DNA of 64,000 bases from Dehalococcoidales bacterium (GTDB lineage Bacteria > Chloroflexota > Dehalococcoidia > Dehalococcoidales > CSSed11-197). Location of the stretch: positions 4,756-68,755 of the forward strand of contig JAQUNW010000004.1 in the NCBI GenBank assembly GCA_028717385.1, given 5' to 3'. The position numbers and the translations under genes were made by a program. Every line of letters starts with the position of its first letter. Within the stretch, counting starts at the first letter, position 1. The notes under the pieces are model-generated. The model ran no database searches and was not told the origin of the DNA. It saw only the letters and a program-made list of their open reading frames with translations. This document shows positions 13,979-26,004 of the stretch, piece by piece.

Positions 13979-16039
13979 CTACTTTAGCTGAGCCAGCACT
14001 GACTCAGGTACTTCCTGGTATTCGTAAAATTCAAGGGCGTAGGTAGCACGTCCCTGCGTAATAGATCTTAAAACCGTGGCATATCCAAAGGTTTCAGCCA
14101 GGGGAATCAAGCCTTTCACTGTCACTACATCACCTCCGGTATCAATCCCCTGAATTTGGCCACGACGTGAATTAATATCGCCTATGATATCGCCCAGAAA
14201 CGACTCCGGACTAGTAACTTCGATTTTCATAATAGGTTCAAGAACCACCGTGCCAGCTCGAGAAAGAGCTTCTTTGAAAGCCAGAGATCCGGCCATCTTG
14301 TAGGCCATTTCAGAGGAGTCAACATCGTGATAGCTTCCATCGTATACAGTAGCTTTAAAATCTACCACCGGATAGCCTTTCAATCCGCCAGTAACGGAGG
14401 CTTCTTTTATACCGTTGCCAGCGGCAACAACAAAGGTCCTCGGAACAGCGCCACCTTTAATTTTATCTTCGAATATATAGCCTGCGTTGCGTTCCAAGGG
14501 CTCAAAATCAACCAGCACATGACCGTATTGTCCATGCCCACCCGATTGGCGAACAAATTTCCCTTCGGCTTTTACGCTTCTTCTAAATGCCTCTTTAAAC
14601 GCCACACGAGGGTTGCCTACCTGTGCACTGACTTTATATTCGCTCATCATCCGGCTAACGATAACATCCAGATGAAGTTCTCCCATTCCGGAAATCACCG
14701 TTTGCCCGGTATCATTATTATAGGCAACACGAAAGGTTGGATCCTCTTCAGCCAGCTTTTGTAAAGCTTGCCCCATTTTATCTTGATCAGCGCGAGTTTT
14801 AGGTTCGATGGCCACCGAAATAACCGGCTCCGGAAATTTGATGGATTCAAGCAATATTGGTTCATTCATAGTACAAAGAGTATCACCGGTAAAGGTGTTT
14901 TTAAGACCCATGGTTGCAATTATTGCTCCGGTATCAGCCTCTTCCAACTCTTCGTAGCGATTCGCATTCATGAGCACCAGGCGGCCTATTCTCTCGCGAC
15001 TTTGTTTGGTGGCATTATAAACCTGGGACCCCTCCTTGAGCTTACCAGAATAAACCCGGAGGTATACCAGCCTGCCAATAAAAGGATCAGCAACTACTTT
15101 AAATGCCAAAGCGGAAAAAGGCGCATCATCGTCTACGTGTCTTATTACTTCTTCGCCAGAATTAGTATCGATAGCGGTTACCGGCGGCATATCAAGGGGC
15201 GAGGGAAGATAAGCCTCAACAGCATCCAATAACAATGTTACGCCTTTATGTTTAAGGGCACTGCCACAAAGTACCGGTATGATTTTGTTAGAAAGCGTAC
15301 CACGCCGTATGGCGGTTTTAATTTGATCTGTTGTAATTTCCTGCCCTTCAATAAAGGCGTTCATAATTTCATCGTCGGTTTCAGCCAAAGTTTCGATAAG
15401 AAGCTGCCGATATTTTTCTACTCGCTCTTTTTCAGCAGCCGGTACTTCACATGGGGTAATCTTCCCTTCTTTTTGCCCATCCATCGCAAGTGCACGATTT
15501 TCAACCAGGTCCATCACTCCCAAAAAAGTATCTTCTTTACCTAAAGGACACTGGACAGCGAGAGGCTTGGCATTTAACCGTTCACGAATCATTTTAATGC
15601 AACGTTCAAAGTTTGCCCCGGTCCTATCCATTTTATTGATAAAACAAATCCGGGGAACTCCATATTTATCAGCCTGTCTCCAAACCGTCTCAGATTGCGC
15701 CTCAACCCCAGCTACGGCATCAAAAACCACAACACCCCCGTCAAGAACACGCAAACTGCGTTCGACTTCAGCTGTAAAATCCACGTGACCGGGAGTATCA
15801 ATAATATTTATACGATAATCATTCCAGTAACAGGTAGTAGCTGCCGATACAATAGTGATGCCCCTCTGTTTTTCAAGGTCCATCCAATCCATGACAGTAG
15901 TACCATCATCGACCTGGCCGATTTTATAGGTACGACCGGTATGGAACAATATACGCTCGGTAACTGTTGTTTTACCGGCATCTATGTGGGCAATAATCCC
16001 AATATTACGTATTTTCTCTAGTGGATAACTTCTGGGCAT
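13979..16039 (-). CDS. fusA: translation elongation factor G
   Basis: 686 aa. G-domain motifs [17 protein letters not shown] and NKMD. It lies between rpsG and rpsJ. Confidence 0.98.
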
Positions 16040-16129
16040 TTTATTTCTCGGGTGTTGCTTTCTTTCAATTCTAATTTAGCAAATCATTGACCGTACTTGG
16101 TCGATATGGTGCAGGATTCGTTTGCGCAC

Positions 16130-16615: not shown

Positions 16616-17041
16616 CTACGCAGCCTTCTTGGGTCGTTTGGCGCCGTATTTACTGCGCCCTTGTTTTCTATTATTAACACCGCTGGCGTCCAGTGCACCG
16701 CGTACAATATGGTACCGCACACCAGGTAGATCCGGTACACGGCCACCCCTGATTAATACAACAGAGTGTTCCTGCAGGTTGTGCCCTTCTCCTGGGATAT
16801 ACGCAGTAACTTCGATTCCGTTTGACAACCTTACCCTGGCAATTTTACGTAAAGCCGAGTTAGGCTTCTTAGGAGTGGTGGTTTTTACCTGCACGCAAAC
16901 ACCACGCTTTTGGGGCGAGCCCTTGCGACCTTTATTAGTTCGGTTTGTTAACGCATTAAACGTAAACCGCAGCGCTGGCGTCTTGGTCTTATCAGAGACC
17001 TTTTCGCGTCCTTTTCTGACTAATTGATTTACCGTGGGCAA
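16616..17041 (-). CDS. rpsL: 30S ribosomal protein S12
   Basis: The conserved S12 N-terminus [11 protein letters not shown] is directly preceded by TTG (17041-17039), with GGGGGA SD 6-11 nt upstream. The track ATG at 17107 adds 22 non-conserved residues. Confidence 0.93.
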
Positions 17042-17172
17042 ATTTTCCCCCTTAATTACAAGGCATTCTGAAAATTCCAAAGGATGAGTCCAGCTCATCC
17101 TTTGCACTATAAAGGACTAACTTACCGTTAGCCCTTTGCTCGAACCGCCTTAGTGATAAGCAACAGCCTATA

Positions 17173-17202
17173 AGAGTAGCACAGTCAATTTAGCACTGTC
17201 AA
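17173..17202 (-). promoter_or_regulatory. candidate promoter of the ribosomal superoperon
   Basis: On the minus strand: TTGACA (17202-17197), 18 nt, TACTCT (17178-17173). This would give a roughly 125-nt rpsL leader. The -10 element is weak. Confidence 0.3.
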
Positions 17203-17264
17203 GCTTAAAGAGCTTTGAAAAGCACCGCTAAAAACCGGAAAATCATAGCATAAACGGTATTGTA

Positions 17265-17293
17265 TTGACAAGGCGGATAGCCGGTGTTAAAAT
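17265..17293 (+). promoter_or_regulatory. sigma70-type promoter of the aro operon leader
   Basis: Consensus TTGACA (17265-70), 17-nt spacer, TAAAAT (17288-93). It faces the aro genes, and there is no plus-strand gene upstream. Confidence 0.6.
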
Positions 17294-17334
17294 GCTTCCA
17301 CAATAGCGCAAAGGTATTATAGATCACAAATATA

Positions 17335-17409
17335 ATGCATACAAAAACTACTGTAAAATTGTTTTGGGCATATTATTACCACCCTTCCCTTGGAGGGTCT
17401 GGCTTGTAG
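17335..17409 (+). CDS. candidate aro-operon leader peptide (24 aa, MHTKTTVKLFWAYYYHPSLGGSGL)
   Basis: ATG 17335 to TAG 17407-09. Codons 17362-17379 encode F-W-A-Y-Y-Y. The ORF overlaps segments 1 and 2 of the alternative hairpins. No clear SD precedes it. Confidence 0.6.
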   Translation: MHTKTTVKLFWAYYYHPSLGGSGL

Positions 17410-17440
17410 TCTCTGGTATCTATTGTCGCTAAAACAGCTT

Positions 17441-17467
17441 AACCCTCCTACATGGAGGGTTTTTTTA
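17441..17467 (+). terminator. intrinsic terminator (attenuator) in the aro leader
   Basis: Stem AACCCTCC (17441-48) / GGAGGGTT (17454-61), loop TACAT, U-tract of 7 T (17460-66). It lies 35 nt upstream of the DAHP synthase ATG. Confidence 0.75.
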
Positions 17468-17501
17468 TATAATTCAGCTGGTTAATCGGGAGGAGTAAAC
17501 C

Positions 17502-18587
17502 ATGATAATAATGAAAAAAGGAGCTACGGCTGAGGAAATTGCCGGAGTAGTCAATGACCTTAAAAGTCACGGCCTGAGTGCGGACGTTTCCAGGGGAGAA
17601 ATTCGTACCGTAATCGGGATCATTGGTGATGAAAGTCGAATTTCTGCCGCGCACCTGGAAACCTTGCCCGGGGTAAAAGAGGTTCGGCTGATAGAAACAC
17701 CTTACAAGTTGATAAACCGGGAATATTCGACTCTGTTCGATGGCAAGACTGAAAGCCGCGTAGTTAAAGTCGGCGCAGTAAAAATCGGTAATTCTGAACC
17801 GGTATTCATAGCCGGCCCCTGCGCGATTGAAAGTAAAGTTCAATTGATGCGAATTGCGGCGGAAGTGAAGGCTGCCGGTGCTGATATCCTGCGAGGAGGG
17901 GTATTCAAGCCACGCACTTCGGTTCACTCCTTTCAGGGGCTTGGATCCAGCGATGAGGGTGCAGAACAGGCCTTGGGGTGGCTTCGAGAAGCTGGAGACA
18001 AGTATGACATACCGGTCATCACCGAAGTGAGGGGTGAATCCCACGTAAATATCGTTGCTAAATATGCCGATATACTGCAAATTGGCTCTCGCAATATGTA
18101 TAACCAAGATTTGCTGATAAAGGTTGCGAAAACTGGCAAGCCGGTATTACTCAAGCGTCATTTTGGAGCCAGTATTGAAGAGTTCCTTTCTTTTGCAGAA
18201 TATATCGCCGCTTCAGGCAACAAGGATATAATCTTGTGCGAGCGCGGTATCGTGCCAGTTGGAAGAGGGAAAAGCTACACTCGTTACGTTCTCGATTTAC
18301 AGGCAGTGCCAGTTATCCAGAAGGAAACCTATCTACCAATAATTGTTGATCCATCTCATGCCGCCGGCAGGAAAGACCTGATCACAACCATGAGCATGTC
18401 TGCTATTGCTGCAGGGGCATCGGGACTGGAAATTGAAGTGCACTATAATGCCAAGGAAGCTCGTTGTGACAATCAACAAATGATCACTGCCGGAGAACTG
18501 GGATTCCTTATTCAATCATGCAGAAAACTCAACCAAACTATCAGGGAGTATAAAGAAATCGAAGCTGGTAAACAATGCATGAGTTAA
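17502..18587 (+). CDS. aroF: 3-deoxy-D-arabino-heptulosonate-7-phosphate synthase, type I-beta with an N-terminal ferredoxin-like regulatory domain
   Basis: 361 aa, collinear with the Thermotoga-type DAHPS I remember (MI..K.G.T.EE......L...GL......G..RTVIGIIGD.., ..IAGPC..E.., ..RGG.FKPRTS..SFQGLG.., ..KR.., ..DPSH). SD GGGAGGAG is at 17488-95. Confidence 0.93.
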   Translation: MIIMKKGATAEEIAGVVNDLKSHGLSADVSRGEIRTVIGIIGDESRISAAHLETLPGVKEVRLIETPYKLINREYSTLFDGKTESRVVKVGAVKIGNSEPVFIAGPCAIESKVQLMRIAAEVKAAGADILRGGVFKPRTSVHSFQGLGSSDEGAEQALGWLREAGDKYDIPVITEVRGESHVNIVAKYADILQIGSRNMYNQDLLIKVAKTGKPVLLKRHFGASIEEFLSFAEYIAASGNKDIILCERGIVPVGRGKSYTRYVLDLQAVPVIQKETYLPIIVDPSHAAGRKDLITTMSMSAIAAGASGLEIEVHYNAKEARCDNQQMITAGELGFLIQSCRKLNQTIREYKEIEAGKQCMS

Positions 18588-19660
18588 ACCTTATATTTCC
18601 GGGGTTAAATACCTGCCGCATACTGGTTGGCAACGGAATCCTGAGAAACTGCGCTACATATGTAGGTGAGTCTGCAGCCTCGCAATCAGCGATTATCATA
18701 ACCGATTCCAACGTCGGCCACGTCTACGCAGAGTCTTTACTGAGAAGGCTTGAAGAAGCTGGGATAATTGCCAACATCATTACTATCCCGGCAGGGGAAA
18801 ATAATAAAAACCTTAAAACCGTTACCGAAATATACGGGCAACTAGCCAGACTGTATGCCGACCGGGGCACAACTATCATTGGCTTGGGTGGAGGTGTTGT
18901 TGGTGATACGGCAGGTTTCGTAGCGTCCACCTACTTGCGAGGACTGCCCCTGGTTCATATTCCCACGTCTCTTCTTGCCCAGGTTGACTCCAGCATTGGA
19001 GGAAAAACAGGCGTTAACTTCGAGGGATTAAAAAACCAGGTGGGGACTTTTTACCACGCTGCCCTGGTGATAAGCGATACGGTAACACTCTCAACCTTGC
19101 CTCCAAACGAGTTCACAAACGGTGTAGCTGAGATTATCAAAAGTGCGGTGATCGCGGATAGTGAACTCTTTACCCTTCTGGAAGCAAGCATCGACAGGCT
19201 GCACCCGGGTAAGGCAGATCTTTTAGATGAGGCAGTTTTTCGCACTGTCAAAATAAAAGGGCAATCAGTATCAGGGGACGAGAAGGATACCTCGCTTCGC
19301 CAGTTGCTTAATTTCGGCCACACAATAGGCCACGGTATTGAAACCGCCAGTGGATTATCAGTCCGGCATGGCGAGGCGATAGCTGCTGGCATGATAGCAG
19401 CCGCAAGGATTTCCCGAAAGATGAATCTGCTCAGCAGTAACGACTTTCTTCGAATCAGAAGTCTGATATCACGAGCTGGGTTACCATTAAAAATCGGAGG
19501 GATTGATCCGGAAGACGTAATCCAGGCAATAAAACACGATAAAAAAATTAAAAATGGTAAAATGAACTTTGTATTGATAACAGAGCCCGGCAACAGCTTG
19601 CTAAGCCGGGAGGTAACCCTGGAAATGATAAAAATGTCAATTTTGGAAGAAGATGCATAA
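18575..19660 (+). CDS. aroB: 3-dehydroquinate synthase
   Basis: 361 aa. Contains ..GGGVVGD.AGF.A..Y.RG......PT.LLAQVDSS.GGKTG.N.. motifs. It overlaps the aroF end by 13 nt. Confidence 0.95.
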   Translation: MHELNLIFPGLNTCRILVGNGILRNCATYVGESAASQSAIIITDSNVGHVYAESLLRRLEEAGIIANIITIPAGENNKNLKTVTEIYGQLARLYADRGTTIIGLGGGVVGDTAGFVASTYLRGLPLVHIPTSLLAQVDSSIGGKTGVNFEGLKNQVGTFYHAALVISDTVTLSTLPPNEFTNGVAEIIKSAVIADSELFTLLEASIDRLHPGKADLLDEAVFRTVKIKGQSVSGDEKDTSLRQLLNFGHTIGHGIETASGLSVRHGEAIAAGMIAAARISRKMNLLSSNDFLRIRSLISRAGLPLKIGGIDPEDVIQAIKHDKKIKNGKMNFVLITEPGNSLLSREVTLEMIKMSILEEDA

Positions 19661-20312
19661 ACCAAAGATATGTGTTGTGATAACCTCGGATGATACTGTT
19701 GCTATAGAGTATTCATCACAGTATGCTGACCTGTTCGAAATGCGTCTTGACATGATTGGTAACGACTGGTCCTCGATTCTTCGTTTCATACACAAGCCGT
19801 GGATAGCCACCTGTCGCCTGAAATCCGAAGGCGGCACCTGGGATGCAAGTGAGGCGAGGCGCAAAGAAGAGATTCTGAAAGCTTTAAGCAGTGGGGCTTC
19901 TTTGGTCGATCTTGAACTCGATACCCCCAACCTTGAAAGGCTGGCCCCCATTGTCAAAAAGAGGGGGCAACTTATCCTCTCTTATCATAACTACAACGAA
20001 ACTCCTTCACTGGAAAAAATTGAAGCTATTGTTGAACGCGAATTCAATGCTGGAGCCGATATTGCCAAAATCGCCACCATGGCAGATTCCCCCAGCGACG
20101 CCTTGAGAGTACTCCAGATTATAGAAAAGTTCCCGGATAAAGAAGTAATAGCGATCACTATGGGGGAAAAGGGGGCTCTCTCACGGATCCTGGCGCCACT
20201 AATCGGCAGCCCTTTCACTTATGCGGCTACCATCACGGGGCAGGAATCTGCCGCTGGCCAATTTTCCGCCTTCGAACTCAATAAAATATATTCCATGTTG
20301 GGATTATCATGA
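19653..20312 (+). CDS. aroD: 3-dehydroquinate dehydratase, type I
   Basis: 219 aa. Has the length and pattern of type I DHQase (..DL.E.R.D.., ..SYHN...TP.., ..DI.KIA.MA). It overlaps aroB by 8 nt. Confidence 0.88.
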   Translation: MHKPKICVVITSDDTVAIEYSSQYADLFEMRLDMIGNDWSSILRFIHKPWIATCRLKSEGGTWDASEARRKEEILKALSSGASLVDLELDTPNLERLAPIVKKRGQLILSYHNYNETPSLEKIEAIVEREFNAGADIAKIATMADSPSDALRVLQIIEKFPDKEVIAITMGEKGALSRILAPLIGSPFTYAATITGQESAAGQFSAFELNKIYSMLGLS

Positions 20313-21739
20313 AGCCAGGAGTTAAAATATGCGCCCTTCTTGGAGACCCAATCGAGCAAAGCTTGTCTCCAGATATGCATAATGCCGCATTCAGGGATAA
20401 GGGGCTCAACTATATATATATCGCTTCCAGGGTTAAGCCCTCATCGCTTGCAGAAGCCATTGAAGGAAGCCGGGCACTTGGTATTCACGGATTAAATATA
20501 ACTATTCCACATAAAGTCAGCGTCATGGCATTACTGGACGAAATTGATGAAGCAAGTGAGCAAATTGGAGCAGTTAACACTGTTGTCAATACTAATGGAG
20601 TATTAAAGGGATACAATACGGATGCTGCTGGATTCACAAAAGCACTGGCAGGCAAAAACGTCGACGCTTACGGAAAACAGGCAGTAGTATTGGGAGCCGG
20701 AGGAGCTTCCATGGCAGTTTCGTACGCCTTGGTTAAAGCAGGCGCCAGTGTCACAATCATGAACCGCTTGGCGCATCTTGATGGAGCTTCTCGACTGGCA
20801 AACAAACTGGGCAGTATCAGCCATAACCCTGTTCAGGCGATGTCATTAAGTCCCCAGAACCTGGAAAAATGTCTTGAAACTGCTGAAATTCTGATAAACG
20901 CTACCAGCGTAGGTATGCATCCGGGTAAAAATCGTACCCTGGTACCGGAACATTTACTTAGACCGGAGATGATTGTTTTTGACCTCATCTACAATCCTCT
21001 TCAGACAAAGCTGTTGGCTGATGCCGCTCGCGCAGGGGCGCAAACAATCAACGGCCTTGAAATGTTGGTATGGCAGGGGGCTCTCGCATTTGAACTATGG
21101 ACAGGTCTTGCCCCTCCAGTTGGAATAATGCGTGCGGAAGCGTTGAAAGCATTAGAGGGAGATAATCCAGTGAGTAAAAAACATCAAAAATCCATGCGCA
21201 ATAAATCAAAAAACAGCGTTGTATTGATAGGCTTCATGGGTTCTGGAAAGACTACCGTTGCCAGAATTCTTGCCGGGAAAACCGGCAAGCGCCTGATCGA
21301 ATTGGACCGCCTGATCGAAATCAACGCCGGCATCAGCATCCCTGAAATCTTTTCCATCAGAGGAGAAACGGAGTTTCGAGAGCTGGAAATAGCAGCCATC
21401 AAAGAAGTTTCTGGAGTTAACAACCAGGTAATTTCGTGCGGAGGAGGAGTTATCCTCAACAAAATAAACATAGATCGGCTCAAAGAAAATGGGGTAGTGG
21501 TATACCTTGAAGTAAATCCGGATGAGATAATGTCGAGAATGCAAAGCCAGTCAGTAGAAAAACCGGTACTAAAGAATCCAGGTGATCTCGATGAAGTAAG
21601 GGAATTGCTATCCTTTCGTGAACCTTTTTACAGGGCTTATGCCGATATTATTATAAATACTACATCTCTCTCTGCAGAAGAAACCGCCCAACAAATCATT
21701 GCAAGGTTAGCCAACCATGAACTGCACGATAGAACCTAG
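20309..21739 (+). CDS. aroE: bifunctional shikimate 5-dehydrogenase / shikimate kinase (AroE-AroK fusion)
   Basis: 476 aa. The N-terminal ~280 aa are SDH (..SLSP.MHNAAF.., ..G.N.TIPHK.., ..GYNTD..GF, GAGGAS). A short basic linker follows. The C-terminal ~170 aa are shikimate kinase, with Walker A LIGFMGSGKTTV from about 21230. It is a single uninterrupted frame. Confidence 0.92.
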   Translation: MKPGVKICALLGDPIEQSLSPDMHNAAFRDKGLNYIYIASRVKPSSLAEAIEGSRALGIHGLNITIPHKVSVMALLDEIDEASEQIGAVNTVVNTNGVLKGYNTDAAGFTKALAGKNVDAYGKQAVVLGAGGASMAVSYALVKAGASVTIMNRLAHLDGASRLANKLGSISHNPVQAMSLSPQNLEKCLETAEILINATSVGMHPGKNRTLVPEHLLRPEMIVFDLIYNPLQTKLLADAARAGAQTINGLEMLVWQGALAFELWTGLAPPVGIMRAEALKALEGDNPVSKKHQKSMRNKSKNSVVLIGFMGSGKTTVARILAGKTGKRLIELDRLIEINAGISIPEIFSIRGETEFRELEIAAIKEVSGVNNQVISCGGGVILNKINIDRLKENGVVVYLEVNPDEIMSRMQSQSVEKPVLKNPGDLDEVRELLSFREPFYRAYADIIINTTSLSAEETAQQIIARLANHELHDRT

Positions 21740-22976
21740 CCAAATGAGAGGAAGGGCAACTGCCCCTTCGTCAAAAAGCTATACTATCAGAGCGCTAATC
21801 GCTGCAGCACTTGGTTGCGGTACAAGCCAATTATACAATCCTCTATATTCGGATGATACCCTGGCTGCAATCGACGTGCTAACAAACCTGGGCGTGGTTA
21901 TTACACATAAAAATGGACTATTGATTGTCAGAGGCGGGTCGCCGGTTCCTTCTCAAAAACCTTTAAACTGCCGTGATTCAGCTGCTACTTTGCGTTTTAT
22001 GGCCGCGATATGTGCTGCCCTCCCCGGAATTTCCATCCTTGAAGCGAGGCCAGGCCTTGCCCGAAGACCGATTACTCCACTGCTCGAAATATTAAAAACA
22101 ATGGGAGCAGATTATGTTTACGAGAGTAACCGAATTGTTGTTTTCGGCGGAGATTTACGGGGAGGATTATATACAATTAAGGGAGATTTGAGTTCACAAT
22201 TTATCTCAGCATTATTACTGATTGCCCCACTTGTCAGAGAAGACGTAGCCTATCAACTCGATACAATGCCCCGTTCACGCCCATATATCGAAATGACAAT
22301 TGAAACTATGCATAACTTCGGTGTTCAAGTTAATACTACAACTGATTTTACCCTCTTCAAGACATCCCCCCAGGCTTACCACCCTGCCGGCATATGCATA
22401 GAGAGTGACTGGTCGAGTGCAAGCTACCTCCTGGCAATTGGAGCCATTATTGGCGAAATCACGGTTGAAGGTTTGAATCTGCTGAGTATCCAGGGAGATA
22501 AAATCCTGATCCAAATTTTACAGAAAATGGGAGCGGCTATTTTGCCCGATTCCAACTCTGTTACAGTTCGTCCGGCTCGACTCCATGCAATCAAGTTTGA
22601 TATGAGCCATTGTATTGACCTGCTTCCCACGGTGGCCATCGCCGCGGCAACCGCAGATGGCACCAGTTATCTAAGCGGTATAGCAAGAGCGCGGCTGAAG
22701 GAATCTAATCGTGTGCGGGCTATTTGTGAGGGGCTCATCCAAATGGGTATACAGGTTGAAGAACGACCAGACATGCTCATCATACACGGTGGCGAGCCTC
22801 GTGGGGCAACTATTAACAGCTTTGATGATCACCGCATTGCGATGGCATTTGCTGTACTTGGTTTAAAAACCGGAAACACCACAATCACCGGAGCTGAATG
22901 CGTATCTAAAACATTTCCTTCTTTCTGGGATACAATACAATCGCTGGGAGGAAAGATAAGGATCGAGAATGGGTAA
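21717..22976 (+). CDS. aroA: 3-phosphoshikimate 1-carboxyvinyltransferase (EPSP synthase)
   Basis: 419 aa. N-terminal ..I.P....G...AP.SKS.TIRAL and C-terminal ..DHRIAMAFAV.GL are present. It overlaps the aroE-aroK end by 23 nt. Confidence 0.95.
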   Translation: MNCTIEPSQMRGRATAPSSKSYTIRALIAAALGCGTSQLYNPLYSDDTLAAIDVLTNLGVVITHKNGLLIVRGGSPVPSQKPLNCRDSAATLRFMAAICAALPGISILEARPGLARRPITPLLEILKTMGADYVYESNRIVVFGGDLRGGLYTIKGDLSSQFISALLLIAPLVREDVAYQLDTMPRSRPYIEMTIETMHNFGVQVNTTTDFTLFKTSPQAYHPAGICIESDWSSASYLLAIGAIIGEITVEGLNLLSIQGDKILIQILQKMGAAILPDSNSVTVRPARLHAIKFDMSHCIDLLPTVAIAAATADGTSYLSGIARARLKESNRVRAICEGLIQMGIQVEERPDMLIIHGGEPRGATINSFDDHRIAMAFAVLGLKTGNTTITGAECVSKTFPSFWDTIQSLGGKIRIENG

Positions 22977-24054
22977 CACACTGGGAAAACTATTTTCTGT
23001 CACCAACTTTGGAGAAAGTCATGGTCGCCTTATCGGAGCGGTGGTTGATGGATGTCCTCCGGGGCTTTTTCTAAATGTAAGTGATATACAAACTGAACTT
23101 GACAGGCGTAAATCCGGCTCATTCGGAACCACTAGCAGACAAGAACAAGACCGGGTTGAAATACTTTCGGGAGTATACGAAGAACATACCACCGGCGCTC
23201 CCATCGCAATGGTAGTCTGGAATCAGGATTTTGATTCAAACCAATATGGTAAAAGACTAACCATCCCCCGGCCTGGGCATGCGGACTATGCTTCATTTAT
23301 CAAGTATGGAGGCTTTGCGGACCATCGTGGTGGAGGCAGGTTCTCTGGCAGAATTACAGCTGGATTTGTGATGGCGGGAGCTATTGCTAAAAAACTGCTC
23401 GTCCAATCAGGCATAGAAGTAATCGCTCATACCATCGAACTGGGAGGGAAAAAAGCAAAAGCCGCCTCTCTGGAAGAGATACGCGCCGCTCGTGATAACG
23501 AACTATGCTGCGCCGATGTCAGTGCAGTGTTGGATATGCGTGACACTATCCGACAGGCAAGGGAAGAAAATGACAGTATTGGCGGGATTATCGAAGTTGT
23601 AGCGCTGGGAGTGCCACCAGGATTGGGAGAACCCGTATTTGACAATCTGGATGGTGATTTGGCCAAAGCCCTGTTTGCTATACCGGCAGTCAAGGCTATT
23701 GAATTCGGTTGCGGATTTGACACTGCTCGGCTGAAAGGCTCCCAGAATAACGATCCCTTTTTAACAGACAGCAAAAGAATCACCTGTGCCAGTAACAATG
23801 CAGGCGGAATTTCCGGAGGTATGAGCAACGGTATGCCCATAGTCATCAAAGTCGCAATAAAGCCCACACCTTCCATCGGTATCCCCCAAGACTCTGTTGA
23901 TCTGGATTCCCTCAAAGCGGTCAAGCTGACAACAAAAGGAAGACACGATACCTGCATAGTGCCCAGAGCAGTAGTCGTCGCTGAATCTATGGTCGCGATA
24001 ACCATTGCCGATTTTGCCAGGCGAGCCAATATAATCCGGGGAGTAACAAAATGA
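22969..24054 (+). CDS. aroC: chorismate synthase
   Basis: 361 aa. MGNTLG..F.VT.FGESHG is the canonical AroC start. Confidence 0.96.
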   Translation: MGNTLGKLFSVTNFGESHGRLIGAVVDGCPPGLFLNVSDIQTELDRRKSGSFGTTSRQEQDRVEILSGVYEEHTTGAPIAMVVWNQDFDSNQYGKRLTIPRPGHADYASFIKYGGFADHRGGGRFSGRITAGFVMAGAIAKKLLVQSGIEVIAHTIELGGKKAKAASLEEIRAARDNELCCADVSAVLDMRDTIRQAREENDSIGGIIEVVALGVPPGLGEPVFDNLDGDLAKALFAIPAVKAIEFGCGFDTARLKGSQNNDPFLTDSKRITCASNNAGGISGGMSNGMPIVIKVAIKPTPSIGIPQDSVDLDSLKAVKLTTKGRHDTCIVPRAVVVAESMVAITIADFARRANIIRGVTK

Positions 24055-25127
24055 ACCTGGATGAGTTACGCAATCACATAGATTCGATCGACCTGCAAAT
24101 TATTAAGCTCCTGGGTGCCAGGTTAAACCTGAGCAGCCAAATTGGGGTAGTTAAAAACAGTCAGGGGCTCGATATAGAAGATCGGGGAAGGGAAAATCAG
24201 ATCATCACGAAGATAAAACAGCTGGCAGAAAAGGAAGGACTTAACGCCACAGATGCTGCCAATATTTATGACATTATTTTCAAAGCTTCCAAAAGCGCCC
24301 AGGGGTTGGCTGTAGCTTTTCAAGGGGAATTCGGAGCTTTTAGCGAAATAGCTGCAATAAAAATCTTCGGTACTACAACACGGGTTGTACCTTTGGAGTC
24401 ACTGGAGGATGTATTTAGAACAGTACAAAGAGGAGATGCCCCCTATGGCGTAATCCCGGTAGAAAACTCACTCGAAGGAAGCATTGATACTGCTTATAAT
24501 CTACTTTTAGACTCAACTTTAACCGTATCGGGTGAGCTTGAGTTAAAAATCAGCCATTGCCTGATCGCCAATCGCGGTGCCAGCCTTTCCAGTATTAATA
24601 AAATATACTCCCATCCCCAGGCGCTTGGGCAGTGTCAAGCTTTTATCAAGCATCTTGGATGCCAGCTGATACCGACATATGACACCGCCGGCAGTGTTAA
24701 ACTTATCAAGAATGAGAAAATAACGGACGGTGCCGCAATTGCCAGTTCCCGTGCGGCTGAAATATACGATATGGAAATCCTGGCAAGCGATATCCAGGAT
24801 AATTTAGAGAATTATACCCGCTTTTTTGTAATTTCAAAAAAAGCATCTGATCCGAATCCGTTAGATAAAACGTCGGTTATTTTTACTGTCAAGCACGAAC
24901 CTGGTGCTTTATCCGGGATATTAAACGCTTTTGCCGTAGAGAATATCAACCTCACCAAACTAGAATCGAGGCCAACTCGTCGCAAACCATGGGAATACAA
25001 GTTTTATATGGATTTTGAAGGGAATTATCGCGATCCCGGTCCCGCGAGAGCTCTTAAAAGTGCAAATCAGTACGCCATATTTATAAAAATTTTGGGCTCC
25101 TATCCCAAGGTCAAAGAAAGGAGCTGA
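24051..25127 (+). CDS. pheA: bifunctional chorismate mutase / prephenate dehydratase (P-protein) with a C-terminal ACT domain
   Basis: 358 aa. An N-terminal AroQ chorismate mutase helix (LDELR..ID.ID..I..LL..R) is followed by a PDT domain (VAFQGE.GAFSE..) and an ACT domain (..ESRP....WEY.F..DFEG). Confidence 0.94.
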   Translation: MNLDELRNHIDSIDLQIIKLLGARLNLSSQIGVVKNSQGLDIEDRGRENQIITKIKQLAEKEGLNATDAANIYDIIFKASKSAQGLAVAFQGEFGAFSEIAAIKIFGTTTRVVPLESLEDVFRTVQRGDAPYGVIPVENSLEGSIDTAYNLLLDSTLTVSGELELKISHCLIANRGASLSSINKIYSHPQALGQCQAFIKHLGCQLIPTYDTAGSVKLIKNEKITDGAAIASSRAAEIYDMEILASDIQDNLENYTRFFVISKKASDPNPLDKTSVIFTVKHEPGALSGILNAFAVENINLTKLESRPTRRKPWEYKFYMDFEGNYRDPGPARALKSANQYAIFIKILGSYPKVKERS

Positions 25128-25137
25128 GGGAACAACT

Positions 25138-26004
25138 GTGAAGGTTTCAATTATCGGCGGCACTGGACGCATGGGAAGATGGCTGGCACGCTTCCTCAAG
25201 GAAGAAGGCGCTGATGTCACTATTATCGGGAGGGATCCGGTCTCTACACAACAAGCCGGGCTTGATATTGACTGTCAGGCTACTACAGATATAACCACCG
25301 TACAGGGATCCAGAGCTATCATCATTTCAGTAGCAATCGACGCTTTTGAAGAAGTAGTTAAAAAACTGGCACCGATTACTACCGATAATCAGTCAATCAT
25401 CGATATTACTTCGATAAAAATAATGCCAGTCGAAATAATGAACCGTTACATCGTCAAAGGTACTGCTTTAGGAGCTCATCCCGTATTCGGCCCTGGGGCA
25501 AGAGGAGTGTCAGGCCAAAATTTTGTCCTTACCCCAACTAGTGTTCCACAGCAAGAGCTTGCTGAAAAAGTTAGAAAGTTTTTATGTCAACGCGGTGCAC
25601 GTGTACGCATAATGAGCCCCGAAGAACACGATCGCTTGATGGCAGTTATCCTTGGACTGGCGCACTTCATCTCTATAGTATCTGCTAACACTTTGGTTGA
25701 TTACGGCAAGCTGGAGGAAATGGCCGGTGTTCAGGGTGTTACATACCGGGCGCTTTTAACCCTTATCGAGAGTGTGCTATCTGAAGATCCCGAGCTTTAT
25801 GCTTCGCTCCAGATGAACCTGCCACATATGAAAGACGCTCAGGGAATATTTATATCCAATGCAAAGCTCTGGTCTGAACTTGTTGAAAAAAAAGATCGCC
25901 AGTCTTTCGTTGAACGTATGAAGCAGCTAAGACAGCAGTTTGAGGAAAATAATCCACATTTTGGCCAGGCTTACGATAACATGTATCGACTGGGCAACCG
26001 TTAA
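25138..26004 (+). CDS. tyrA: prephenate (or arogenate) dehydrogenase
   Basis: 288 aa with GTG start. Rossmann motif KVSIIGGTGRMG and the PDH core ..HP.FGP.. are present. It is the last gene of the aro operon. Confidence 0.9.
   Translation: MKVSIIGGTGRMGRWLARFLKEEGADVTIIGRDPVSTQQAGLDIDCQATTDITTVQGSRAIIISVAIDAFEEVVKKLAPITTDNQSIIDITSIKIMPVEIMNRYIVKGTALGAHPVFGPGARGVSGQNFVLTPTSVPQQELAEKVRKFLCQRGARVRIMSPEEHDRLMAVILGLAHFISIVSANTLVDYGKLEEMAGVQGVTYRALLTLIESVLSEDPELYASLQMNLPHMKDAQGIFISNAKLWSELVEKKDRQSFVERMKQLRQQFEENNPHFGQAYDNMYRLGNR

Follow-up and report, generated by a model that had tools for sequence, protein, structure and literature searches.

The locus described here raises the question of how transcription of an eight-gene aromatic amino-acid operon is adjusted in a Dehalococcoidales bacterium (Chloroflexota), and whether the short open reading frame (ORF) in front of the operon takes part in this adjustment. 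The stretch analysed, called the window below, comprises 64,000 nucleotides (nt) of contig JAQUNW010000004.1 (assembly GCA_028717385.1, positions 4,756 to 68,755 of the forward strand), and all coordinates are positions within it. Dehalococcoidia are slow-growing, mostly uncultured and genetically intractable bacteria that are important in organohalide respiration and subsurface carbon cycling, and to our knowledge almost nothing is known about the regulation of biosynthesis in this class. A first-pass annotation, made from the sequence without database searches, had proposed that the short ORF, four pairing segments and a terminator upstream of the operon follow the logic of the trpL and pheL attenuators. 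This proposal was borne out by an anatomy conserved at 61 of 63 loci, by compensatory changes in the helix between segments 2 and 3 and by the switch obtained in a ribosome footprint model. The leader very probably acts as a ribosome-mediated (leader-peptide) transcription attenuator, with the common shikimate pathway and the Phe and Tyr branches under its control.

Anatomy, conservation and covariation of the leader

Sequence checks and Pfam searches placed every feature listed in the first-pass annotation (promoter, 24-codon ORF, four segments, seven T, eight-gene operon) exactly where it had been described. The leader and the operon that follows it are made up of these parts:

17265-17270, plus strand: -35 hexamer TTGACA (direct sequence check and promoter scan).
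17285-17293, plus strand: extended -10 box TGtTAAAAT, with TG at 17285-86 and TAAAAT at 17288-93, separated from the -35 hexamer by a 17-nt spacer.
17300-17334, plus strand: predicted 5' untranslated region (UTR) of the leader, about 35 nt, without a Shine-Dalgarno (SD) sequence.
17335-17409, plus strand: leader ORF of 24 codons, MHTKTTVKLFWAYYYHPSLGGSGL, followed by a stop codon (sequence check).
17362-17379, plus strand: proposed regulatory codon tract Phe-Trp-Ala-Tyr-Tyr-Tyr (sequence check).
17379-17387, plus strand: segment 1, CCACCCUUC (core ACCCTTC, 17381-87), the 5' strand of the anti-antiterminator hairpin.
17392-17404, plus strand: segment 2, GGAGGGU (17392-98) and GGCU (17401-04), which can pair with segment 1 or with segment 3 and its upstream flank.
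17407-17409, plus strand: leader stop codon TAG, 8 nt beyond segment 2.
17436-17448, plus strand: segment 3, AGCU (17436-39) and ACCCUCC (17442-48), the 3' strand of the antiterminator and at the same time the 5' arm of the terminator.
17441-17466, plus strand: intrinsic terminator, composed of AACCCUCC, the loop UACAU and GGAGGGUU, with seven U at 17460-66.
17454-17460, plus strand: segment 4, GGAGGGT (sequence check).
17488-17504, plus strand: SD GGGAGGAG (17488-95) and ATG (17502) of the DAHP synthase (DAHPS) gene (sequence check, Pfam).
17502-26004, plus strand: operon of eight ORFs under the proposed control (Pfam: DAHPS with an FXD domain, aroB, aroD, aroE-aroK, aroA, aroC, pheA and tyrA).

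The energies of the alternative structures were compared, as the first-pass annotation had suggested. The 1:2 hairpin reaches -10.0 kcal/mol, the 3:4 terminator -13.9 kcal/mol and the 2:3 antiterminator -19.6 kcal/mol when it is folded as a hairpin that includes the inner GGCU:AGCU helix. A terminator scan returned a stem of 8 bp (17441-61) that is followed by a T-rich tail, and the motif CCCTCC-N3-9-GGAGGG occurs once in the 64 kb, compared to 0.02 expected occurrences. In the fold that precedes transcription of segment 3, seven of the seven segment 2 nucleotides needed by the antiterminator of the window are sequestered by segment 1. The fold of the whole leader (-48.2 kcal/mol) is 4.1 standard deviations better than dinucleotide shuffles, none of 200 being as good. 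Its minimum free energy (MFE) structure is dominated by an outer stem of about 20 bp that joins 17304-24 in the 5' UTR to 17410-32 in the region after the stop codon. As a part of the element this stem was rejected: the RNAalifold consensus for the six closest leaders lacks it, as do the folds of leaders L001 and L002, and it may be due to chance.

Related loci were collected by a genome scan with the DAHPS protein, which yielded 69 loci with 49-86 % identity, almost all labelled Dehalococcoidia, Dehalococcoidales or Dehalogenimonas. The 63 loci with sufficient upstream DNA were compared, the orthologous Dehalococcoidia loci having a DAHPS identity of 56-86 %. The same arrangement is shared by 61 of them: a perfect or near-perfect TTGACA/-10 promoter, a mini-ORF and a CCCUCC...GGAGGG terminator with a T-run. 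TTGACA is perfect at the equivalent position in almost all related loci, the mini-ORF starts with ATG (once with GTG) and contains 4-8 aromatic codons per 8-codon window, and the terminator sits 27-150 nt before the DAHPS start. The two exceptions are L051 and the Actinomycetota locus L063. The first-pass annotation had advised looking in related genomes for conservation of the mini-ORF and of the clustered aromatic codons and for compensatory changes in the four segments; the first two were found, as were compensatory changes in the 2:3 pairing. Each related locus has one terminator of the CCCUCC/GGAGGG type, always upstream of DAHPS, and motif and covariance-model searches returned no further copies of the leader element in the 64-kb window or the 69 loci. 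In Dehalococcoides mccartyi the element could not be placed by a single genome scan and a protein search, which gave only metagenome-assembled genomes and Dehalogenimonas. Two bins of other phyla, L056 (labelled Calditrichales) and L060 (labelled Tepidisphaeraceae), carry a Dehalococcoidia-like DAHPS at 65 % identity and are probably mis-binned contigs; the aro leader of L056 scores 86 bits with the covariance model.

The leader peptides belong to several unrelated subfamilies, for example FWGYFYY..GRAGL, YFYAYYYFTPG..GG and YYTYFTFTWR..CAWG, which have the aromatic tract alone in common. For the 24-aa peptide of the window, an exact-sequence look-up in a collection of 15 billion proteins gave no entry, and an upstream extension of its ORF is blocked by an in-frame TAG at 17320-22. 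The mean tract of the family comprises 8.5 codons (3.8 Tyr, 2.2 Phe and 0.85 Trp); all 61 leaders contain Tyr, 60 contain Phe and 47 contain Trp. Tyr is encoded by both of its codons (TAT:TAC = 134:100 in the family tracts). This is the pattern that would be expected if codon identity, rather than the peptide or the RNA sequence, is under selection. Segment 2 has the family consensus GCYUGGGRGG and begins 12-18 nt after the last aromatic codon, and the leader stop codon lies downstream of it in 56 of 60 family members.

Covariation of the antiterminator was assessed for a 10-bp helix on a plain MAFFT alignment of 60 leaders that had not been fitted to the helix. On this alignment, 86.9 % of the cells are paired, compared to 66 % when the helix is slid by +-1. 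Double changes are found in eight of the ten pairs, for example U-A 28 / C-G 17 and G-C 24 / A-U 19 / G-U 15. They amount to 54 double-change cells versus 13.4+-5.0 in shuffles, and none of 500 shuffles reaches this number. The covariance-model alignment, which is fitted to the competing hairpins, gave a similar picture with 87.9 % of the cells paired and 51 double-change cells versus 12.6+-5.8 in shuffles, again reached by none of 500. Over the two alignments, slid controls of the helix have 4-18 such cells. The terminator helix covaries too. The partner of segment 2 in the antiterminator is the 5' arm of the terminator together with its loop, and the median duplex energy is -18.9 kcal/mol versus -11.2 kcal/mol in shuffled leaders.

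Per-sequence folding showed that, family-wide, 78 % of the bases that segment 2 contributes to the antiterminator are already sequestered when segment 3 has yet to be transcribed. In most subgroups, these bases are held by a CCUCCC-like segment on the upstream side of the aromatic tract, with the tract as a bulge. Covariation of this upstream-strand hairpin is moderate (70.5 % paired versus about 54 % when slid; one of 500 shuffles reaches it). A joint alignment of the 1:2 hairpin of all subgroups, by MAFFT or by the covariance model, was discarded as out of register (66.7 % paired), and per-sequence folding was used instead. As a separate observation, the helix cores are almost invariant throughout the class, with GGGAGG/GGAGGG resembling an SD and CCCUCC an anti-SD sequence (17392-98, 17442-48 and 17454-60 in the window). 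Two or three alternative partners per strand may be enough to freeze the core sequence. More speculatively, the SD-like GGGAGG and anti-SD-like CCCUCC cores might interact with 16S rRNA.

A covariance model (R1) was trained on 52 leaders; the window and its six closest relatives were left out. Its best match in a search of the window alone is 17359-17472, which is the single full-length one in 128 kb (20.9 bits, E ~0.03). Scores are 26-38 bits for the sister leaders L001-L006, 64 bits for the held-out leader L037 and 88 bits for the likewise held-out L065. In every locus, R1 detects exactly one plus-strand copy, always upstream of DAHPS.

These comparisons bear on the possibility that promoter, aromatic-rich short ORF and hairpin are a chance conjunction without a regulatory role. 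Aromatic-rich six-codon windows are indeed not rare in this AT-rich sequence: in all six frames of the 64-kb window, at least five aromatic codons in six occur 21 times, compared to about 8 expected. For this reason the aromatic run is weak evidence when taken alone and was dropped as a stand-alone argument, and the case for an attenuator rests on context and conservation. Here, chance would have to account for an arrangement shared throughout a bacterial class by 61 of 63 orthologous loci, for covariation that none of 500 shuffles equals, for a fold z-score of -4.1 and for a terminator motif that occurs a single time in the window and in each locus. By this comparative evidence the chance reading is effectively refuted, and its probability is regarded as minimal. 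One further stretch resembles the tract: plus-strand 16030-16047 (TTCTGGGCATTTTATTTC) would read F-W-A-F-Y-F and agrees with the leader tract in 14 of 18 nucleotides. As this stretch is antisense to the start region of fusA (AAAATGCCCAGAA), the resemblance was judged coincidental.

The mini-ORF could alternatively encode a functional aromatic-rich micropeptide, or act mainly on the translation of DAHPS, in which case the hairpin would have an ordinary role in structure or stability. In favour of this, the ORF keeps its position in the family and small hydrophobic peptides are widespread. However, the conserved peptide sequence is limited to the aromatic tract, and the C-terminal halves of the peptides track the RNA helices. 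The hairpin carries a U-tract, keeps its distance from the DAHPS start given above and leaves the DAHPS SD free. Moreover, the covariation backs two mutually exclusive helices that share segment 3, which would be needless for a plain stability hairpin. A micropeptide or a purely translational role is considered very improbable.

Proposed switching by a translating ribosome

According to the proposed attenuation mechanism, transcription would begin at about 17300 and a ribosome would translate the 24-codon leader. When Tyr-tRNA (probably also Phe-tRNA and Trp-tRNA) is scarce, the ribosome would stall on 17362-79 with its footprint over segment 1. Segment 2 would then be free to pair with segment 3, no terminator would form and the polymerase would enter the operon. 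When charged tRNAs are plentiful, the ribosome would reach the TAG at 17407 and cover segment 2, and the 3:4 hairpin with its U-tract would terminate transcription, giving a leader transcript of about 167 nt. If the leader is left untranslated, the 1:2 hairpin would hold segment 2, and termination via 3:4 would follow as well.

The mechanism was modelled by a 28-nt ribosome mask on a transcript exposed only as far as segment 3, which is a crude equilibrium folding that ignores kinetics. With the Tyr codon at 17371, 17374 or 17377 in the A-site, the MFE structure of the window flips to the 2:3 antiterminator. A ribosome at the stop codon (footprint 17392-17419) covers segment 2, and the terminator forms. 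When the same model was applied to 60 leaders of the family, a ribosome placed on the first aromatic codon gave the antiterminator in 49 of them, and one on any aromatic codon in 53. With the stop codon occupied, the number was 12, and without a ribosome it was 22. The masking geometry that the first-pass annotation had described thus holds for the three Tyr codons and the stop codon and fails for Phe17362 and Trp17365. Its idea of a single leader that reads Phe, Trp and Tyr together is therefore not borne out as equal reading in the window, where the model places only the Tyr codons close enough to mask segment 1. A response to amino-acid supply and the relative weight of Tyr, Phe and Trp in it are predictions.

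Several points weigh against the attenuation reading. The antiterminator core of the window has just 7 bp. With the 5' UTR removed and no ribosome present, the equilibrium fold of the window already favours 2:3, and for this reason the off state would rely either on folding kinetics or on the non-conserved outer stem. A ribosome on Phe17362 or Trp17365 is too far upstream to mask segment 1 in the 28-nt model, and the 1:2 hairpin stays intact. The anti-antiterminator is heterogeneous, its 5' strand being downstream of the tract in the subgroup of the window (segment 1) and mostly upstream of it elsewhere. The covariance-model score of the window is marginal, with an E-value of about 0.03-0.2. 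Finally, the leader ATG of the window has no SD, and translation of the leader is predicted.

The absence of a clear SD had already been noted in the first-pass annotation, and the comparison confirmed it and revealed a family-wide pattern of leaderless or SD-less starts. In the subgroup of the window and one other, the leader ATG follows the -10 box by 27-47 nt and no SD is conserved. In about half of the loci (L014, L020, L041 and about 27 others; e.g. L014:2040-2080), 7-12 nt separate the -10 hexamer from the leader ATG, which implies, as far as promoter positions can tell, that the leader mRNA is leaderless there. Judged from these sequences, the missing SD before the leader ORF is a trait of the leader family.

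The missing SD of the window ORF also bears on the possibility that the switch is real but is set by something other than a ribosome, such as a TRAP-like RNA-binding protein that recognises UAY/UUY repeats, an uncharged tRNA or a small ligand, with the mini-ORF being incidental. The U/A-rich triplet repeats are in principle a possible protein-binding site, and tRNA-sensing RNAs exist in the clade, namely the Dehalococcoides T-boxes for ileS and trp genes (PMC2494555). Nevertheless, no T-box or riboswitch was matched even at E<=10, and an in-frame ATG (GTG once) with an open frame through segment 2 is found in 61 of 61 leaders despite their unrelated peptides. Tyr and Phe codons interchange and both Tyr synonyms are used, which fits selection on codon meaning and not on an RNA motif. 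In addition, the start codon coincides with the expected first nucleotides of a leaderless mRNA in about half of the loci. A switch without a ribosome is considered improbable.

The ribosome-mediated attenuator might also integrate more than one input. The tract would be bulged between two 5' strands of the anti-antiterminator, segment A (CCUCCC) upstream and segment 1 downstream, so that the half of segment 2 set free would depend on whether the ribosome stalls on early codons (often Trp/Phe) or on late ones (Tyr/Phe). The charging of three tRNAs would thereby be integrated in one leader, and in about half of the family this would take place on a leaderless mRNA whose first nucleotides are the start codon, with ribosome and polymerase coupled from +1. 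This extension is put forward tentatively, as a possibility that we hold to be rather doubtful.

The operon and its surroundings

The leader promoter scores 11/12 plus the TG and is the top promoter-like site in a scan of 16-27 kb (11 kb). From its position, the transcription start site is expected near 17300. The upstream neighbours rpsL, rpsG and fusA are encoded on the opposite strand, and the sole long plus-strand ORF upstream of the leader, 16629-17027, is antisense to rpsL.

The eight genes are tightly packed, with seven junctions that overlap or span at most 10 nt. According to Pfam, the pheA product combines CM, PDT and ACT domains, and DAHPS carries an N-terminal ferredoxin-like (FXD) domain. 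There are no trp genes in the operon. An exact-sequence look-up of two operon proteins, DAHPS and PheA, assigned the window to a metagenome-assembled genome of an uncultured member of Dehalococcoidales. DAHPS aligns over its full length, including the FXD domain, with the Thermotoga maritima enzyme 1RZM/3PG9. The T. maritima DAHPS is feedback-inhibited by Tyr and Phe. The suggestion in the first-pass annotation of allosteric control of DAHPS as a second layer besides the leader is reasonable on this basis. The aroE (shikimate dehydrogenase) and aroK (shikimate kinase) genes are fused in a single ORF of 476 aa (20309-21739).

Further promoter-like sites and repeats were noticed around the leader and in the operon. 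On the minus strand, the site 17271-17242 consists of TTGTCA (17271-66), an 18-nt spacer and TATGAT (17247-42) with TG. Its TTGTCA overlaps the -35 hexamer of the aro promoter back to back and points towards rpsL, which suggests that the rpsL-rpsG-fusA and aro operons have divergent promoters. The upstream region of rpsL (17178-17215) contains two copies of GCAC(A/T)GTCAA at a distance of 15 nt and, after them, a short inverted repeat (CAAGCTT...AGCTTTG). L001, L002, L004 and L005 have a similar sequence upstream, and these repeats may be a promoter or leader element of rpsL. Directly after the U-tract of the terminator lies a perfect TATAAT (17468-17473) without a convincing -35 (CTCCTA). It may belong to a weak constitutive promoter by which the attenuator would be bypassed, or simply to AT-rich spacer DNA. 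Shortly ahead of aroA, within the 3' end of aroE-aroK (21627-21663), TTTACA, a 16-nt spacer and TATTAT (10/12) are found together with an out-of-context YYYKYY codon run; both are probably chance products of AT-rich sequence.

Significance and comparison with known systems

An attenuator of this kind across the class would indicate that transcription and translation are coupled and that classical attenuation operates in Chloroflexota. The leader is a candidate RNA family that is ready for annotation, and the mini-ORF is absent from the gene calls that were looked up. The family also supplies natural cases in which a leader peptide would be read from an apparently leaderless mRNA. In metatranscriptomes, the short terminated transcript could mark aromatic amino-acid sufficiency in situ.

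A division of labour in aromatic amino-acid control is suggested as well. The common pathway with its Phe and Tyr branches would be under the leader peptide and the Trp genes under T-boxes, as has been described in Dehalococcoides, and the FXD domain of DAHPS would add allosteric control. Dehalococcoides T-boxes have been reported for trpE and trpB-like genes and for ileS (PMC2494555), and those of the trp genes are in keeping with a leader biased towards Tyr and Phe and with an operon that lacks trp genes. A literature search on amino-acid-dependent expression in Dehalococcoides found nothing useful.

Rfam 15 contains no family for this element, and nothing in the region reaches a gathering threshold. 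The top near-matches are Phe_leader (RF01859; 32.4 bits, E=0.0013, gathering threshold 55), with a full-length alignment at 17343-17468, and Trp_leader (RF00513; 23.4 bits, E=0.018, gathering threshold 41). Both match the generic architecture only. The T-box model (RF00230) had no match in the window at the gathering threshold, and a search of 17100-17560 with E<=10 yielded none either. In the searchable literature, no description of leader-peptide attenuation in Dehalococcoidia or Chloroflexota was found, with a mention in the cross-phylum survey of Lopatovskaya et al. 2010 being possible. The novelty claimed in the first-pass annotation is overstated, since a mixed aromatic leader before a DAHP synthase gene is known from Corynebacterium glutamicum, where aroR is the closest functional precedent (PMC4046766; PMC11802643).

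According to Mentz et al. 2013 (PMC4046766) and to PMC11802643, which summarises Neshat et al. 2014, aroR is a Phe-Tyr-Phe leader peptide before aroF and is reported to respond to Phe limitation and not to Tyr. As stated in PMC4046766, which cites Morbach et al. 2000, corynebacterial leader peptides are made without a ribosome-binding site. Both systems have a short mixed-aromatic leader ORF directly before the DAHP synthase gene and use ribosome stalling for attenuation, in the present case as proposed. The resemblance is functional only. The phyla differ, aroR belonging to Actinomycetota and the leader described here to Chloroflexota. The Dehalococcoidia tract is longer (about 8.5 codons), dominated by Tyr and usually includes Trp, and the leader would control a complete eight-gene operon from DAHPS to PheA/TyrA. 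In addition, the reported response of aroR to Phe contrasts with the geometry of the window, which favours Tyr.

With aromatic T-boxes, known from Firmicutes and from the Dehalococcoides trpE and trpB-like genes (PMC2494555), the leader would share tRNA charging as the signal and the choice between terminator and antiterminator. It has, however, no T-box sequence or structure and would sense charging via the translation of codons instead of direct tRNA binding. The TRAP-dependent trp attenuation of Bacillus subtilis likewise places a terminator/antiterminator choice and triplet repeats in the leader of an aromatic operon. TRAP needs 9-11 spaced (G/U)AG repeats, whereas the aro leader has contiguous UAY/UUY/UGG codons within a conserved frame from start to stop.

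A likeness in logic is also found in trpL and pheL of E. coli (RF00513, RF01859), which have the same four-segment 1:2/2:3/3:4 scheme, a run of end-product codons and a terminator with a U-tract. In contrast to these, the Dehalococcoidia leader combines three amino acids in one tract, and its ORF is often leaderless. Its stop codon follows segment 2, while that of the E. coli leaders precedes it. The regulatory codons, which lie inside segment 1 in E. coli, are located 5' of segment 1 in the window or bulged between two 5' strands in the other subgroups. The Dehalococcoidia leader is a new family of a classical mechanism and not a new mechanism.

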